This document shows, in pieces, positions 27,795-34,873 of a DNA stretch of 64,000 nt (the first letter of the stretch is position 1; every line of letters begins with the position of its first letter). Both the position numbers and the translations under genes were made by a program. Origin of the DNA: a phage; the sequence record PX436236.1; one strand, written 5' to 3'. The notes under the pieces are model-generated. The model had not been told where the DNA came from. It ran no database searches and was given only the letters and a program-made list of their open reading frames with translations.

Positions 27795-28097
27795 TTATTT
27801 ACCTTTAATTGCTTTAGCTGCTTCGGTAGCCGCTTGCTGAAGGTCATCCATAGACATACCGAACTTAGAAGCAAAGTTATCAATTTTCTTTTCGACAGAA
27901 TTCAAAGGCTTGGCCTGTTTACCTTCATTAGCGCCTGGGAGAGCGAGAATACGCTCTTTGTCAATATAAAGGCTTACAAGTTTCTTACGGTCTTTATCGG
28001 GCAAATCATGAAATGAATGGGCCTTTTTATTTACGGCGGCTTCTAATTTACCCGCACTTACTCGCGCTTCGGTGATAAATTCTTGATAGGTTTTCAT
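27795..28097 (-). CDS. ipII: Internal protein II-like (CTS-bearing)
   Basis: MKTYQEFITEARVSAGKLEAAV...; 100 aa; lies beside denV as T4 ipII does. Confidence 0.6.
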   Translation of the reverse strand: MKTYQEFITEARVSAGKLEAAVNKKAHSFHDLPDKDRKKLVSLYIDKERILALPGANEGKQAKPLNSVEKKIDNFASKFGMSMDDLQQAATEAAKAIKGK

Positions 28098-28138: not shown

Positions 28139-28735
28139 TTAATTACCACGGGCTGCATTAGCAACGGCGTAAGCGTACTGAATATTAGCGTCTTTAAACG
28201 TACCTTTAGAGGTATCTAGTTCTGCCTTAAAGCCGCCTTTAACCATAACATCAGCAAATTCTTTACGGAAAGTCATTGCATCAAGACCTTTCCATGCGGA
28301 TTTATGCTTGGCAAATTCAAGACCGGCGAAGTTAACTGCTTTAGCCAATTTATTATCAATAGTCCATTTACCTGCTTTAGGTACAAACACCGGGCCTTTC
28401 TGTTTAGAGAACAGTTTTAAATTCCAGCGACGAAGGTCACCGTCAGCTTTAACAAAAGCTGCGTCCAAGTTACTAGCAACAACATCTTGGATATGGGCAA
28501 ATTTAAGTCCATCAGCTTCAATATTTAGGTCGTTACGCCAGCGAAGTCCTTCCCAGGCGAAAGCTTTAAAGTCGGAAGCTTTTGTAGCCAAGTACCGTTC
28601 AATAGGAGCTGTTTTAGCGTCAAAACCGTTTCCTGGGTTGTCAACGCCGTTTCCTTTGTAAGTCCACTCATCTTTATTAATGCCTTGGACCTTTCCTACA
28701 GAAGCTTCGGCGATAAATTCTTTATACGTTTTCAT
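28139..28735 (-). CDS. ipIII: Internal protein III-like (CTS-bearing)
   Basis: MKTYKEFIAEASVGK...; 198 aa; between the ipII-like gene and e. Confidence 0.6.
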   Translation of the reverse strand: MKTYKEFIAEASVGKVQGINKDEWTYKGNGVDNPGNGFDAKTAPIERYLATKASDFKAFAWEGLRWRNDLNIEADGLKFAHIQDVVASNLDAAFVKADGDLRRWNLKLFSKQKGPVFVPKAGKWTIDNKLAKAVNFAGLEFAKHKSAWKGLDAMTFRKEFADVMVKGGFKAELDTSKGTFKDANIQYAYAVANAARGN

Positions 28736-28817: not shown

Positions 28818-29216
28818 TTATTTATAGGTCTTCATCCAATTCTTGAACAAAGCCGCGACGTCTTTCTCTTTAACGTTCAGTTTAATGTCCAACATTTTAC
28901 CACCCGCTGCTCTGGTTTGGCGAATCTTAGCAGTACCGGTTTCGCCATTCCACTCAACATAATACTGTCCAGTGTTCATTGCAATACCATCACCGTAGTC
29001 TTCATTTTTAGAAGTGGTGAATGCTAGCTTCATAGTCTTAGATACATGAGCCTGCATGCCTGTCTGAAGGGCATTACGAACGCGAATAACCTGAGGAGTG
29101 GCCTGGGTCAAGTTCTCATTCAGTTCTTCAGTGAACTCTTCAGATTCAAACATCGCCAAAAGTTCTTTAGATGCAGGAATTACATTCTCTGCGATAAATT
29201 CATTATAAGTTTTCAT
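28818..29216 (-). CDS. Internal-protein-type virion cargo protein ([14 protein letters not shown]), no T4 counterpart recognised
   Basis: N-terminal CTS; 132 aa; start overlaps the 3' end of e. Confidence 0.55.
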
Positions 29217-30177: not shown

Positions 30178-30406
30178 CGTCTCGTTCCCATGATTGTTTA
30201 AAAATATCTTGCATAATAATTTGAAGTCTATTTTCTGATGATGGACTTTCACTATCAGACACTTGAAGCATATAGTCACCAATAGGACAGAACATATCCA
30301 TATCGCTTTCTAAGTCTTCTTTAATTTTCTCTTCTGATGTTCCGGTATCATAGGAATACAGGTAAGAATCACATGACTCAGATTTAATATAAATTGCAAT
30401 ACTCAT
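30170..30406 (-). CDS. Hypothetical acidic small protein
   Basis: 78-aa ORF rich in D/E/S. Confidence 0.35.
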   Translation of the reverse strand: MSIAIYIKSESCDSYLYSYDTGTSEEKIKEDLESDMDMFCPIGDYMLQVSDSESPSSENRLQIIMQDIFKQSWERDDE

Positions 30407-30996
30407 TTACGGCATTCCTCAATAAACTCATTTAAATTCTGTTTGATTTTACCTTCGTCGTAAAGACGTTGTTGACGACGTAAACGCCATGGCATTTCAA
30501 TAGCCAAGCACCAAATACTTAAAGCAGCGCCAGCGGCGGCAAGGTTCATTAATCCAGCGCCAATAATAGTTCGTTCTAGCGCATCATTCCAGTTGGCATC
30601 GATTAAAAATGAACTCAGCACTAACATTGGAAGTAAAGTAATAAAATACGCTACAACATATCGTCCGAACGTAAGCCATTCAGTATCAATGAGCCTGGCC
30701 TTTCCATCTTGGAGACAAATATACTTATCGTCAGTGCGAGTGATTTTCTTTACTGGTTGCCAGCCGTTTACAATATAGCCCATTTTATATTCCTCAATTA
30801 AAAGCTGTTTCATTTCGGCAGTACAACCTGACCAATCTATTGTACTGGCTGAAATTCCTTCATCACCGTCATCGATATTTCGCCAGGACTTTTTAATAAT
30901 CATATGTTCACCACTTGGGATAATAATTCCGGCATTTTCCGACCTACGGATGAAGTTTGTATCAATACCCATACATCCAGGTTCATAAAGGGCCAT
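30403..30996 (-). CDS. Membrane protein with C-terminal NLNEFIEECRK tail
   Basis: 197-aa ORF; two or three hydrophobic helices; C-terminal motif shared with two other ORFs. Confidence 0.45.
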   Translation of the reverse strand: MALYEPGCMGIDTNFIRRSENAGIIIPSGEHMIIKKSWRNIDDGDEGISASTIDWSGCTAEMKQLLIEEYKMGYIVNGWQPVKKITRTDDKYICLQDGKARLIDTEWLTFGRYVVAYFITLLPMLVLSSFLIDANWNDALERTIIGAGLMNLAAAGAALSIWCLAIEMPWRLRRQQRLYDEGKIKQNLNEFIEECRK

Positions 30997-31685
30997 TACC
31001 AGCCCTCCATAGGAAATTCCAGATATACTTGAGCATTAACACGGATTTCATTAGTAATCTTTTTAACACGGTCTGTATTACGAGACACACGACCAAACCA
31101 GCGCCACCCATTACTTACTGCACGAGAACCTGTATGCCACGTCTGCCAATCAAACTGGAGCAACGTGCGGTCAGGAGCATCCCACTTAGTTAATTCATTA
31201 GACTCAATTTTTTCCAGAACTTCTTTATGCCACTGGCGATAGATAAGTTCGCCTTCAGGAATCTGACTGAACTGTGCAGTTCCGGTTGCAAAATGAGTAG
31301 GACACACATCAGCGTTAACAAGACCAAGAATATGTTCAGAATGGTATCGAGGATTGTCATAATCAGGTTGCCCTGCGGTAATAAAGTGTTGACCCACCGG
31401 AATATCCGGGCGTGGTACATCATCATGGTGATAACCTGGGATAGCAGGATACCAACCAGGCATCAGCATGTGAACACGAGAATCAAATACAATATCAGGG
31501 CCACATTGCCAATCTTCAGGCAGGTTTTCAATAAAGCTACGAGTAATAGGACCGCCGTGTTTATGAGCAAAATAAGCATCGCAATTAAAGAACATAGGCT
31601 CATTTTTAATCATATCATTACTGATATCTTGAGCAAAACCACCGACTGCACGAGCTTGAGAATTAAAAGTTTTCGGACCGTTCAT
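30996..31685 (-). CDS. Hypothetical protein (229 aa; His/Asp-rich, possible metalloenzyme)
   Basis: Long ORF; PGWYPAIPGYHHDD segment; no confident family call. Confidence 0.45.
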   Translation of the reverse strand: MNGPKTFNSQARAVGGFAQDISNDMIKNEPMFFNCDAYFAHKHGGPITRSFIENLPEDWQCGPDIVFDSRVHMLMPGWYPAIPGYHHDDVPRPDIPVGQHFITAGQPDYDNPRYHSEHILGLVNADVCPTHFATGTAQFSQIPEGELIYRQWHKEVLEKIESNELTKWDAPDRTLLQFDWQTWHTGSRAVSNGWRWFGRVSRNTDRVKKITNEIRVNAQVYLEFPMEGW

Positions 31686-31699
31686 AATATTTTCCTCAC

Positions 31700-31912
31700 T
31701 TACTTTTTGTTGAAAAAGTACATTTTACCTTTAGGGGATAAGGATACACGAAGTGCGTTACCAATACCAACTGAACATTTAACCAGGTCAGCAGATTTCA
31801 ATTCACCAAATGCTTGACGAAGGTCACCATCACGAGTGTTAACCATCAGGCATTTAGCACCAGCTGCACGAACTTCGTTTAACATGTTGATTGCTTGGTT
31901 AGAAAGTTTCAT
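31700..31912 (-). CDS. Hypothetical small protein
   Basis: Start MKLSNQAINML at 31912 with GGAGAA SD; PeSL promoter upstream. Confidence 0.4.
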   Translation of the reverse strand: MKLSNQAINMLNEVRAAGAKCLMVNTRDGDLRQAFGELKSADLVKCSVGIGNALRVSLSPKGKMYFFNKK

Positions 31913-31938
31913 TTTATTCTCCATTTCACTCTGTTGTT

Positions 31939-31978
31939 TTGATAGGTCTATAGTATCACACCTATAGACCTTGTACAC
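31939..31978 (-). promoter_or_regulatory. PeSL-type early promoter/stem-loop repeat
   Basis: GTGTACA-N16-TACTAT with conserved core; GGTCTATAG...CTATAGACC inverted repeat. Confidence 0.5.
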
Positions 31979-31990
31979 TGTTTTGTGCAA

Positions 31991-32950
31991 TTATTTTTCG
32001 AAAGGACGAATTAAATGATGGTTATCTTGGAAACGCTTGATGTAGTCGTTTTCACCTAAAGTCTTATACATATTCACTACAGCTTGGTAGTTTTCCCAGG
32101 CGTACTCGCGGAACCAACCTGAAGTGATTGAGGTACACACTTTCTCAAGAGCCATATAAAAACTTAATGATGGTGAAATATTGAAGTCATTAGGAACCTG
32201 TGAACGTTCTAGTGCCAGGACACAAGTTTCTTCATATACACCAGCCAGTTTAATAGCTTCAGGCAAAGCCTCGAACTTCTCACGAGAGGTCATGACTTCA
32301 GAACCTTCCTTCATATAAAAGGTATATGCAGGGCGTCCAGCCAATGCTACTGCTTCATGAATAGAGTCATGGTCCAGCGTATAAATGGTATCATTAAAGA
32401 ACGATGATTTGTTTACGTCCAATTTAGGGTGAGAATAGCTCAACGTTTCTTTTTGACGTTGCAGCATAATTTCCTGGAGTTCTTCGTTAAGGGTGATACC
32501 TTTATTACGAAGGTATTTGATGTGTGACATAGTTTTCAAGAAGAACGGATTATTCTTAAGGAAACGATGAGAGGTTTTGATAGCCAGACAGATATCAGGG
32601 GTGGCCCAATAGAAACCAGTAAGACGGTCCTTTTTAATATGATTTTCAGCATATTTCAGGAGACGATAGCTTGAAGTGAAATCTTCGTCTTGAAGCTCAC
32701 CGGTAATTTCTCGTACGTTAGTCAGAGCACGAACGATATAAGCTTCAAAATAGGTTTCTTTACCATTATGCATACATTTGAAAGCCTGGACATCAGGATT
32801 GTCAACGTGTACATGGGCGCCGAACATACGTGCTTTAAAGTGATTCCATGAGCCTTGGTCGGCAATGAAATCCCAATCAGAATTTTCGATATGCTTACTT
32901 TCAATCAGACCAGCGTGGTGCAGTGCACGAGAACCAATAACTAACATCAT
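31991..32950 (-). CDS. Hypothetical protein (319 aa), possible nucleotidyltransferase fold
   Basis: Start MMLVIGSRALHH at 32950 (GAGGAAAAT RBS); GS...SDWD arrangement loosely fits an NTase motif. Confidence 0.4.
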   Translation of the reverse strand: MMLVIGSRALHHAGLIESKHIENSDWDFIADQGSWNHFKARMFGAHVHVDNPDVQAFKCMHNGKETYFEAYIVRALTNVREITGELQDEDFTSSYRLLKYAENHIKKDRLTGFYWATPDICLAIKTSHRFLKNNPFFLKTMSHIKYLRNKGITLNEELQEIMLQRQKETLSYSHPKLDVNKSSFFNDTIYTLDHDSIHEAVALAGRPAYTFYMKEGSEVMTSREKFEALPEAIKLAGVYEETCVLALERSQVPNDFNISPSLSFYMALEKVCTSITSGWFREYAWENYQAVVNMYKTLGENDYIKRFQDNHHLIRPFEK

Positions 32951-32969
32951 AATATTTTCCTCAGTAAAC

Positions 32970-33209
32970 TTAAATTTCAGCGACGTAATCGTTATGCAAT
33001 TCCCACATATCATCAGAATTATTCTTAATGATAGGAATTATCTCATTAGAGATTTCTTCAGCATAAGGGTCATTGATACAGTGGGCATCTTCAAAACGAA
33101 CACCGTAATCAGACTTCTTATAAGAGAAGCCATAAATCTTTTTAAACTTGGCGCGAGTAATGCGTACCGGTTCATTAGACTTATCGGACATCGGAGCGTA
33201 ATACCACAT
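32970..33209 (-). CDS. Hypothetical small protein
   Basis: 79-aa ORF with GAGGAG RBS; promoter ATGTACA-N17-TACTAT upstream. Confidence 0.4.
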   Translation of the reverse strand: MWYYAPMSDKSNEPVRITRAKFKKIYGFSYKKSDYGVRFEDAHCINDPYAEEISNEIIPIIKNNSDDMWELHNDYVAEI

Positions 33210-33612: not shown

Positions 33613-33840
33613 TTATTTTCCTAACGAAATACGAGTAGGTTTTTTACCGAAATAGTCTTCATAAGAACCATCTAAACGACCTGCTTTAGACCGACAATAT
33701 GAATCGTACTTTTTGTAATAAGTCATCTCAGTATTATAACGCGGGTGTCTATCAGCCATAATAATACTTAACGGCCAACCTTTGGCATAATCGCGAAGAC
33801 CATTTATTTTACGAATGTATCTTTTCTTTAATTTTAGCAT
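33613..33840 (-). CDS. Hypothetical basic small protein
   Basis: 75-aa ORF; its ATG overlaps the stop of paralog 1 (ATGCTAA). Confidence 0.4.
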   Translation of the reverse strand: MLKLKKRYIRKINGLRDYAKGWPLSIIMADRHPRYNTEMTYYKKYDSYCRSKAGRLDGSYEDYFGKKPTRISLGK

Positions 33841-34058
33841 GAGCTCGGATACCAGATTTTACCATCGGCCTGAGCAACGAAGGTGCGACCAGCTTCTTCG
33901 CCATAACACGAGCTATTCAGCCAATCTTCGAGACGAACTTCACCGTCATAATCGTCGAGCTCAACACCAAAACTTTGAGCAGAAGCCATATCTTTTACTT
34001 TCTTATACAGTGCAGCCAGTTCAAGTGCAGCTTTTTCTAATTCATTAATATCAGACAT
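33834..34058 (-). CDS. Paralog 1 of the W-x-SS-x-C-terminal small acidic protein family
   Basis: 74 aa, ends ...GKIWYPSSC; GTTTACA at 34088-34094 upstream. Confidence 0.5.
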   Translation of the reverse strand: MSDINELEKAALELAALYKKVKDMASAQSFGVELDDYDGEVRLEDWLNSSCYGEEAGRTFVAQADGKIWYPSSC

Positions 34059-34069
34059 TTTTTATCACC

Positions 34070-34282
34070 TTAGCAAGACATAGAGGATGTAAACCAGAAA
34101 CCTTCACCTTCCGGAATACCGTAGTCATCACGGACCCATTCGTAATCATCATATTCCGGGTTCTTTGGAGAAATGTATTCTCCACGACCAGAAACACGGA
34201 ACTCTTCACCCGTTTCGTCAGCCACAGACTGGCCTTTACGTACTAATTCACGGATTTGGTTTTCAATTTCATCAATAGTCAT
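34070..34282 (-). CDS. Paralog 2 of the W-x-SS-x-C-terminal small acidic protein family
   Basis: 70 aa, ends ...GFWFTSSMSC. Confidence 0.5.
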   Translation of the reverse strand: MTIDEIENQIRELVRKGQSVADETGEEFRVSGRGEYISPKNPEYDDYEWVRDDYGIPEGEGFWFTSSMSC

Positions 34283-34291
34283 TTTATTTCC

Positions 34292-34573
34292 TTAACATTC
34301 AGAAGAAGAGGACACCCAACCACCATTTTCTAGGCTGGTAGTGTAATCATGTTGGTTTACAATAGCGTACTGAGCTTCACCGTATTCTTCCCAGTGGGCA
34401 AGGTCGGCTTTCAAGGCGCCAGGAGAATAATAGTCACCGCCCATACCGCGAGCAGGGTATATATTAAAATGAGTCTCATATTTGTTTGCAATTTCCTCGG
34501 CACGACGAATAGCTTTATGGATATCATTTACTGCTTCAGCCAATTCTTTATTTTTATGGTAATCATTCATCAT
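34292..34573 (-). CDS. Paralog 3 of the W-x-SS-x-C-terminal small acidic protein family
   Basis: 93 aa, ends ...GGWVSSSSEC. Confidence 0.5.
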   Translation of the reverse strand: MMNDYHKNKELAEAVNDIHKAIRRAEEIANKYETHFNIYPARGMGGDYYSPGALKADLAHWEEYGEAQYAIVNQHDYTTSLENGGWVSSSSEC

Positions 34574-34582
34574 AAAATTTCC

Positions 34583-34873
34583 TTAGCACATTGCCGAAGA
34601 GGAGATCCAAGCACCAACTGTAACGACGCCATTTTCAACTTCACCACCGTTGTTTTCAATTTCATCTTTAAACCACTGGGAGCATTCATAACCGACAGGA
34701 TAATATGTACGGCCTGAACCATAATCACCAGTACCGAATTGGATACCATACTTATCGGCAATAGCTTCACATTCATGTTCGATGGTATTCACTTTATTCA
34801 GAAGAGCATAGATAGCCTTTTCTGCAGATTTCTCATCATTGTGTTCCGGGATTTCAATTTCAATTTTATTCAT
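34583..34873 (-). CDS. Paralog 4 of the W-x-SS-x-C-terminal small acidic protein family
   Basis: 96 aa, ends ...GAWISSSAMC. Confidence 0.5.
   Translation of the reverse strand: MNKIEIEIPEHNDEKSAEKAIYALLNKVNTIEHECEAIADKYGIQFGTGDYGSGRTYYPVGYECSQWFKDEIENNGGEVENGVVTVGAWISSSAMC

Follow-up and report, generated by a model that had tools for sequence, protein, structure and literature searches.

What do the two mid-sized genes in the e-to-tRNA region of the phage sequence record PX436236.1 encode, and do they belong with the four paralogous small genes close by? The DNA analyzed here (the window) is a stretch of 64,000 nucleotides from a T4-like coliphage of the Dhakavirus group. It is 95–97% identical to phages QL01, MX01 and Bp7, in whose records both genes, open reading frames (ORFs) here called ORF-A (229 amino acids, aa) and ORF-B (319 aa), are labelled ‘hypothetical protein’. 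A preliminary description made from the window's letters had proposed them as plausible enzymes in the neighborhood of the four-paralog array; both ORFs are present, on the minus strand (which that description left unstated), and the peptides it quoted, PGWYPAIPGYHHDD and MMLVIGSRALHH...SDWD, are found in their translations. We found that ORF-B has the predicted fold and conserved catalytic motif of a nucleotidyltransferase and is linked, in a fixed gene order, to small proteins that end in a conserved cysteine tail, and that ORF-A has those of an Fe(II)/2-oxoglutarate-dependent oxygenase. That ORF-A is an active oxygenase, ORF-B a nucleotidyltransferase modifying the cysteine tails, and the two unrelated accessory genes is a combination to which we give slightly less than an even chance.

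The strongest result concerns the genes upstream of ORF-B. We compared 80 viral loci carrying ORF-B at 40–99% identity, including 350–370-kb jumbo phages and otherwise unrelated contexts, and counted every neighboring ORF that ends in W-x-[SPAGTN]-S-x(1-3)-C-stop. At least one such Cys-tail ORF was found in 75 of the 80 loci (48 of the 51 distant ones), with the nearest less than 1 kb from ORF-B in 69. The 202 Cys-tail ORFs, one to six per locus, lie almost without exception on the strand of ORF-B (200) and upstream of it (198), and the association was seen in all 15 ORF-B clusters formed at 60% identity, T4-like phages and 350–370-kb jumbo phages included. None occurred among 3,754 ORFs of 51 control viral loci (Fisher p 5e-31). 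One of the five ‘negative’ ORF-B loci has a variant tail, WVQSSC. In a reverse look-up of public assemblies, three of four divergent Cys-tail proteins were encoded within one gene of a gene with both ORF-B domains (DUF7277 and DUF7275, described below). The linkage is near-obligate and ordered, and the earlier pointer to the four-paralog array proves relevant to ORF-B and not to ORF-A. A scan of T4 limited to its e-to-tRNA region revealed no ORF-A, ORF-B or paralogous Cys-tail ORF.

In the window, a qualifying tail occurs in exactly 4 of 365 ORFs, and these are the paralog array, whose members end in ...WYPSSC, ...WFTSSMSC, ...WVSSSSEC and ...WISSSAMC. The family (phrog_899) is acidic (median net charge −8, 82 aa), has no Pfam model and gave no detectable Pfam domain, and a search with its profile, limited by the shortness and divergence of the sequences, recovered just 36 proteins. 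The coding sequences of its members finish precisely with G-x-W-x-S-S-x-x-Cys-stop. Counting back from the terminal cysteine, W(-7), S(-4) and C(0) are the only invariant positions of the alignment and S(-3) is at least 90% conserved, so that conservation is concentrated in the last eight residues, as would fit a tail that is recognized or modified.

ORF-B itself matches two Pfam profiles in the order DUF7277 and DUF7275, both above the gathering score (cut-offs of 27 bits). Residues G6, S7, D25, D27 and E69 are invariant in 79 homologues with identity down to 43%, and G6-S7...D25-x-D27...E69 reads as the hG[GS]...DxD plus third-carboxylate signature of Pol-beta-type nucleotidyltransferases; the GS...DxD part is kept even in 25–33%-identical proteins of Gordonia phage Engineer, Streptomyces phage Wakanda and Vibrio phage KVP40. 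The AlphaFold2 model is confident (pLDDT 93, pTM 0.87). Its top structural matches are the MenT1 toxin, ANT(2'')-Ia and MenT3, with MenT/ANT/Lnu nucleotidyltransferases retrieved by two methods and MenT1 ranked first by Foldseek (E 1.4e-3, probability 1.00). The nucleotidyltransferase-type motif that had been loosely recognized in ORF-B, ‘IGS...DWD’, is therefore the invariant G-S...D-x-D, in a protein of matching fold.

The C-terminal domain holds many more invariant polar residues, and DUF7275 is the most conserved part of ORF-B, since distant tblastn matches span only residues ~112–318; the helical part of DUF7275 beyond the superposed region had no solved structural relative at the thresholds used. 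ORF-B also had no PADLOC match at E<=1, and from its sequence it appears to be MenT-like, lying outside the MenT family. Relatives occur in phages of Escherichia, Acinetobacter, Aeromonas, Pseudomonas, Vibrio, Gordonia, Streptomyces and other hosts; one is already annotated as a ‘putative nucleotidyltransferase’, and we found no paper that mentions DUF7275 or DUF7277. In one 308-aa relative (P0176), from a 3-kb contig, DUF7275 is fused to an N-terminal DUF1190 segment that replaces DUF7277, which could be a domain swap or an assembly chimera.

ORF-A belongs to a large family that sequence profiles barely connect to known proteins. It falls in phrog_1843 (E 3e-95) and has no match in Pfam, NCBIfam, PADLOC or PDB sequence profiles; the Pfam PhyH model (PF05721) does not match it and hits just one of 104 relatives (E 0.068). 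Searches of solved structures by sequence, with single sequences and three profiles, gave no significant match for either ORF. In a large protein collection ORF-A has 1465 relatives, of which the best 120 share 68–92% identity, and an exhaustive profile search yielded 736 cluster representatives; the longer relatives have no recognizable fused domain. Built on 54 homologues, the AlphaFold2 model has high confidence (pLDDT 89, pTM 0.87) and is mainly beta-strand, with an irregular 40-residue stretch at 75–116, and its predicted fold is a double-stranded beta-helix (cupin-like core). Fe(II)/2-oxoglutarate oxygenases make up almost all of the 60 best structural matches, and the remainder are other cupins with a single exception. 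Neither ORF gave a confident match to a non-enzymatic fold or to a structural phage protein.

The conserved residues of ORF-A agree with this fold. Across 104 representatives with identity down to 31%, H86 and R195 are the sole invariant residues, and D88, H184, H118, R92 and R199 are each at least 90% conserved. The facial-triad pattern H-x-D...H is present and R195 sits 11 residues past H184, so that H86-x-D88...H184-x10-R195 is predicted from sequence to be the classical facial triad with its 2-oxoglutarate-binding arginine; an H-x10-R spacing is typical of PhyH-type enzymes. A weak, non-significant alignment to the BesD halogenase (E 1.3) places H on H and R on R. The segment earlier suspected of binding metal, ‘GYHHDD’, holds H86 and D88, which are conserved together with H184 and R195, and the suggestion that ORF-A is an enzyme is now backed by a class, through the oxygenase/cupin fold match and the conserved triad. 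Among public names of relatives, one UniRef entry reads ‘phytanoyl-CoA dioxygenase family’ and one GenBank record ‘2OG-Fe(II) oxygenase’. Single GenBank records (P0016, P0126 and H35) instead name an ORF-A relative ‘tail sheath monomer’ and ORF-B relatives ‘prohead assembly scaffold protein’ and ‘major capsid protein’; since these names conflict with the folds and with hundreds of other records, they are probably annotation errors or shifts.

We propose that ORF-A is a stand-alone Fe(II)/2-oxoglutarate-dependent oxygenase of a phage-borne family, which would bind iron through H86, D88 and H184 and 2-oxoglutarate through R195, and would most likely hydroxylate a conserved small metabolite, or another universally conserved target, while turning 2-oxoglutarate into succinate. 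Its occurrence argues for an enzyme that acts by itself. In 80 viral loci with ORF-A relatives, ORF-B lies 1–3 kb upstream only in about 25 from T4-like and Aeromonas phages, and about 50 more distant loci have neither ORF-B within 6 kb nor any constant neighbor. We therefore reject ORF-A and ORF-B as a functional pair, and with it the joint action that the preliminary description had implied. ORF-A is also the most conserved gene of its region: among coliphage, Citrobacter-type and Aeromonas phages (L009–L017) it keeps 81–83% identity, against 64–77% for lysozyme, 56–63% for nudE, 44–75% for ORF-B and 52–63% for e.6. In the Aeromonas phages the values are 81–82% for ORF-A, 44–45% for ORF-B and 53% for e.6, and elsewhere ORF-A at 83% accompanies an e lysozyme at 66%. 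Set against Aeromonas and Citrobacter-type phages, ORF-B has 44–66% and e.6 52–53%. Either an unusually strong constraint on ORF-A or its recent horizontal spread could lie behind this difference. Strong conservation across hosts combined with stand-alone occurrence suggests a single-protein enzyme with a universally present substrate.

That substrate might instead be a macromolecule, with ORF-A performing AlkB-like repair or base hydroxylation of DNA or RNA, or hydroxylating a conserved protein of the host, for example EF-Tu or a ribosomal protein. We hold this to be a minority possibility. Small-molecule hydroxylases of the PhyH clade are nearest to the predicted model, although their margin over nucleic-acid and protein hydroxylases is small (minor Z differences), and no nucleic-acid-binding domain or partner is fused to ORF-A or conserved nearby. 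Metabolite chemistry is also what its only recurrent neighbor points to, a nicotinamide phosphoribosyltransferase (NadV/Nampt) gene just upstream in seven very divergent viral loci. It overlaps the ORF-A relative by 4 bp in two of these (L033 and L040) and lies directly upstream or within two genes in the other five, whose NadV proteins are only 29–34% identical to the L033 copy. Three of the seven also have an NMNAT-Nudix gene, which together with NadV makes up the NARP2-type NAD+ salvage pair. The NARP2 paper makes no mention of an oxygenase, NARP3 is a different gene pair, and 7 of 80 ORF-B loci likewise have a nicotinamide phosphoribosyltransferase gene within 6 kb of ORF-B; we regard the tie of ORF-A to NAD+ salvage as suggestive only, a lead that falls short of a finding. 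The nudE gene, which the T4 record describes as a Nudix hydrolase active on ADP-ribose and NADH, lies three genes away from ORF-A in the window.

Cultured phages with ORF-A include RB69 and Aeromonas, Mycobacterium, Gordonia and Bacillus phages. Relatives 70–74% identical were also found on ~100–113-kb Klebsiella contigs that carry a Rep3 replication gene, gp32, RecA and SbcCD-like genes and, judging by this gene content, resemble phage-plasmids; a 611-kb bacterial contig has one more relative, at the margin of a prophage.

Turning to what ORF-B might do with its small partners, we propose that ORF-B is a Mg-dependent Pol-beta-type nucleotidyltransferase with catalytic residues G6-S7, D25, D27 and E69, and that it makes up one conserved module together with the small acidic proteins encoded upstream, whose G-x-W-x-S-S-x-x-Cys-COOH ends it would recognize through the helical DUF7275 domain as a specificity module. 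It would bind the Cys tail and move a nucleotide (or phosphate) to an invariant serine at −4 or to its neighbor at −3, and this modification would mature or switch the small proteins, which may be the actual effectors. Hydroxyl groups are the acceptors to which enzymes of this fold transfer nucleotides, and an active-site serine of MenT3 is phosphorylated (PMC10435456, PMC11375011), which makes O-nucleotidylylation or phosphorylation of Ser(-4)/Ser(-3) the most economical chemistry. That ORF-B nucleotidylylates or binds the Cys tail is our best guess, which we infer from fold, motif and gene order. Its most specific form, in which ORF-B belongs to an undescribed phage maturation system that covalently modifies W-x-S-S-x-x-Cys-COOH tails by O-nucleotidylylation, possibly followed by elimination and cyclisation, seems to us possible and rather unlikely.

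Several observations weigh against tail modification by ORF-B. The gene linkage is equally compatible with the small proteins being regulators or inhibitors of ORF-B. The remaining tail-less loci, considered over 6 kb, keep ORF-B, which is intact in at least three of them (L104, L141 and L142) and split in L145. The fourth Cys-tail gene of the reverse look-up, on a 310-kb jumbo-phage contig, has no ORF-B within 6 kb, and the 25–33%-identical ORF-B relatives in actinophages and KVP40 occur without the Cys-tail family. Only ~145–185 of the 319 residues superpose on known nucleotidyltransferases, and ORF-B does not match AbiEii/DUF1814 (PF08843), with Pfam at E<=1 giving only DUF7275 and DUF7277.

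The distant relatives in Wakanda, Engineer and KVP40 adjoin different paralogous small proteins of ~100–150 aa, which share a C-terminal motif of roughly F-R-K-x-G-[WY]-Y-x-S-[WY]...[YW]-D-G...E-V-x-P...T-[IV]-T. A nucleotidyltransferase accompanied by arrayed small paralogs is thus a recurring arrangement, in these loci with partners of a different family.

The main rival reading casts ORF-B as a MenT/AbiEii-like RNA nucleotidyltransferase that would extend or repair the 3' ends of tRNAs, either for host translation shut-off or for mending tRNAs damaged by host defence, with the Cys-tail proteins as antitoxin-like inhibitors or regulators; we consider it unlikely. Its model is MenT1, which is neutralized by MenA1, a 68-aa helical protein encoded upstream (PMC10435456). 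The phage proteins are likewise short and upstream, and some ORF-B loci have no Cys-tail genes. On the other hand, they come in one to six divergent copies per locus, frequently with other genes between them and ORF-B, which sets them apart from a 1:1 antitoxin; what is conserved in them is the extreme C-terminus with its obligatory terminal cysteine, whereas MenA1 works through an N-terminal helix; and the Pfam DUF1814 match is missing. The tRNA surroundings are similarly two-sided. The window's tRNA genes lie ~6 kb from ORF-B, and relatives are found near tRNA arrays or repair genes in Engineer, in Wakanda (polynucleotide kinase and RNA ligase) and in eight or nine jumbo-type loci with RNA ligase 1 (Rnl1) and polynucleotide kinase-phosphatase (PNKP). 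However, tRNA genes show no enrichment around ORF-B (4 of 51 distant loci versus 10 of 51 controls), and most of the Rnl1/PNKP cases fall in one jumbo-phage lineage, so that their proximity may be synteny only. For these two reasons we rejected a tRNA connection for ORF-B. As counted, the two tRNA-repair genes were within 6 kb of ORF-B in 8–9 of 51 distant loci, and the 51 controls had RNA ligase 1 in none and the kinase-phosphatase in three; in the same jumbo-type loci a metallophosphatase gene often lies just downstream of ORF-B.

A different fate of the tails, maturation like that of RiPPs (ribosomally synthesized peptides that carry post-translational modifications), appears quite improbable. 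In this reading the small proteins would serve as precursors, each made of a helical leader and a C-terminal core; nucleotidylylation or phosphorylation by ORF-B would activate Ser(-4), and elimination with attack by the terminal cysteine, or a Trp-Cys link, would cyclise the tail. The presence of several divergent precursor-like genes upstream of one enzyme would suit such a pathway, as would the fixed distances of W(-7), S(-4), S(-3) and C(0) from the C-terminus and the invariant Cys243 and Cys272 and several histidines of DUF7275. The i+4 spacing from serine to cysteine equals the size of known lanthionine rings. Yet ORF-B shows no structural likeness to LanC, LanB, LanKC or further RiPP enzymes, its surroundings contain no conserved protease or exporter, the 60–150-aa, highly acidic proteins are larger than typical precursors, and we know of no dehydratase with a nucleotidyltransferase fold. 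Equally doubtful is that ORF-B inactivates or makes a metabolite, antibiotic or signalling nucleotide in the manner of ANT(2'')-Ia or LnuA and is only co-regulated with the Cys-tail genes, since it is almost twice the size of those enzymes and a near-universal, strand- and order-specific linkage across 15 ORF-B clusters in unrelated contexts is hard to explain without a functional tie.

Both ORFs lie in one co-directional run, in the order e.6, several small ORFs, the four paralogous small ORFs, three small ORFs, ORF-B, one small ORF, ORF-A, e.2, one small ORF, nudE and the e lysozyme. The small ORF between them (phrog_6001) is present in close relatives only and falls outside both conserved units. 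Chance ORFs are excluded by the database relatives at E<=1e-3 (1465 for ORF-A and 2033 for ORF-B); among 50,697 phage records, 472 have a relative of ORF-A and 734 one of ORF-B. The two genes have identical 15-base translation initiation regions (GAGGAAAATATTATG). A 340-aa form of ORF-B starting from the ATG at 33013 is unlikely because all homologues, like the PHROG and Pfam profiles, start at MMLVIGS/MLVIGS, the longer form overlaps the preceding ORF, phage Bp7 annotates the 960-bp form, and the ATG at 32950 is preceded by GAGGAAAATATT, the same Shine-Dalgarno sequence and spacer as the ORF-A ATG at 31685.

Table 1. Positions of the features discussed, in the window or, where an L number is given, in the named viral locus or contig.
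Feature	Position	Strand	Family or evidence
ORF-A, 229 aa, Fe(II)/2-oxoglutarate-oxygenase-fold protein	30996..31685	-	phrog_1843; no Pfam family
Codons H86-H87-D88, proposed H-x-D iron ligands	31422..31430	-	conservation in 104 members
Codons H184 to R195, proposed third iron ligand and Arg for the 2-oxoglutarate C5 carboxylate	31101..31136	-	conservation
ORF-B, 319 aa, nucleotidyltransferase-fold protein	31991..32950	-	phrog_2141
DUF7277, N-terminal alpha/beta nucleotidyltransferase domain	32648..32947	-	Pfam PF23942, E 2.5e-27, 95.8 bits
DUF7275, helical C-terminal domain	32036..32593	-	Pfam PF23940, E 2e-77, 259.7 bits
ORF-B proposed catalytic-signature codons	G6-S7 32930-32935; D25-x-D27 32870-32878; E69 32744-32746	-	
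Translation initiation regions of ORF-A and ORF-B	31685-31699; 32950-32964	-	identical 15 bases
Small ORF between ORF-B and ORF-A	31700..31990	-	phrog_6001
Four tandem small acidic ORFs (74, 70, 93, 96 aa)	33834..34873	-	phrog_899, all four match
e.2, membrane-protein gene	30403-30996		
Three consecutive ORFs just downstream of the e lysozyme	27795-28097; 28139-28735; 28818-29216	-	start MKTY(Q/K/N)EFI(T/A)E
Alternative small paralogs near distant ORF-B relatives	L164 4594-4893, 5648-5959, 6493-6846; L163 4890-5800; L165 3705-4001		
Repair-gene loci	L172 1690-4497; L173 258-3046; L113, L114, L121, L127-L131, L133, L146, L150		
NadV/Nampt genes upstream of ORF-A relatives	L033 4559-6004; L040 4580-6004; L057, L069, L073, L077, L081		
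ORF-A relatives on the Klebsiella and prophage contigs	L169/L170 6001-6690; L166 6001-6693		

Two features of the surroundings deserve mention. The e.2 gene adjoining ORF-A is 99% identical to its copy in another locus (L067) and only 53% identical to those of Bp7, JS98 and other close relatives, whose flanking genes are 92–99% identical to the window's; from these identities e.2 appears to be a local mosaic replacement. The three consecutive ORFs just downstream of the e lysozyme share a start that we take to be the conserved N-terminal capsid-targeting sequence of T4 internal proteins. The corresponding position in T4 holds ipII and ipIII, and these ORFs are probably a variable set of internal (injected) proteins.

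In hundreds of cultured phages, among them candidates for therapy against E. coli, Klebsiella, Acinetobacter and Aeromonas, both genes are recorded as ‘hypothetical’, and assigning them enzyme classes with intact catalytic residues makes them testable targets. Judged by their predicted folds, they appear to add new members to known enzyme superfamilies, whose classes had already been guessed in a few public records. That ORF-A is better conserved than its neighbors and has spread over phages of Gram-negative as well as Gram-positive hosts suggests a reaction of broad use. We regard the linkage of the DUF7277/DUF7275 nucleotidyltransferase to Cys-tail genes as the more valuable result, since it defines a module across T4-like and jumbo phages and supplies a candidate partner enzyme for the four-paralog array. 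Our literature searches found no description of this module; what ORF-B and the Cys-tail proteins seem to form is an undescribed module of enzyme and partner, a nucleotidyltransferase with small upstream partners that has a real chance of new chemistry. If the tails are indeed modified, this would be a new and widespread kind of phage-encoded post-translational maturation.

How do these proteins compare with known systems? By family, ORF-B, ORF-A and the Cys-tail proteins are clear members of DUF7277/DUF7275 and of PHROGs 2141, 1843 and 899, all annotated as ‘unknown function’. ORF-A shares with the PhyH clade (EasH 4nao, ColD 8xpf, EctD 4nmi, proline hydroxylase 7dzz and human PhyH 2a1x) the same predicted double-stranded beta-helix, the H-x-D...H triad, the arginine 11 residues past the distal histidine and a size of ~230–280 aa. 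Unlike that clade, it has structure-based identities of only 5–15% to its members, is unmatched by the Pfam PhyH model, carries its H-x-D in a 40-residue invariant loop (75–116), and belongs to a family borne by phages, prophages and phage-plasmids. T4-like cyanophages also carry accessory 2OG-Fe(II) oxygenase and ‘PhyH-domain’ genes of unproven role, for which a part in modulating 2-oxoglutarate or in repairing DNA has been suggested (Sullivan et al. 2010, PMC3037559). These resemble ORF-A by description, as accessory oxygenase genes of T4-like phages, and cyanophages are absent from the ten commonest organism names in our ORF-A phage-record search.

For ORF-B, ANT(2'')-Ia (4xje) and LnuA (4wh5) have in common with it a minimal Pol-beta domain and a helical substrate-binding lobe; these O-nucleotidylylation enzymes are about half its size, and ORF-B has neither sequence likeness to them nor an antibiotic context. 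The best structural match remains the MenT/AbiEii toxins (MenT1 8an4, MenT3/TglT 6j7n and MenT4 6y56), which are bi-lobed like ORF-B, with an alpha/beta nucleotidyltransferase domain plus helices and, in the case of MenT1, a small protein (MenA1) encoded upstream. The signature of ORF-B is the canonical GS...DxD, whereas MenT1 residues important by mutation include T39 and D41 (PMC10435456). ORF-B differs from the MenT proteins in being phage-encoded, in lacking a DUF1814 match and in its extra conserved helical domain of ~170 residues. In place of an AbiEi/COG5340 or MenA1-type antitoxin, its apparent partner is the multi-copy C-terminal-tail family phrog_899, encoded upstream along with other small ORFs.

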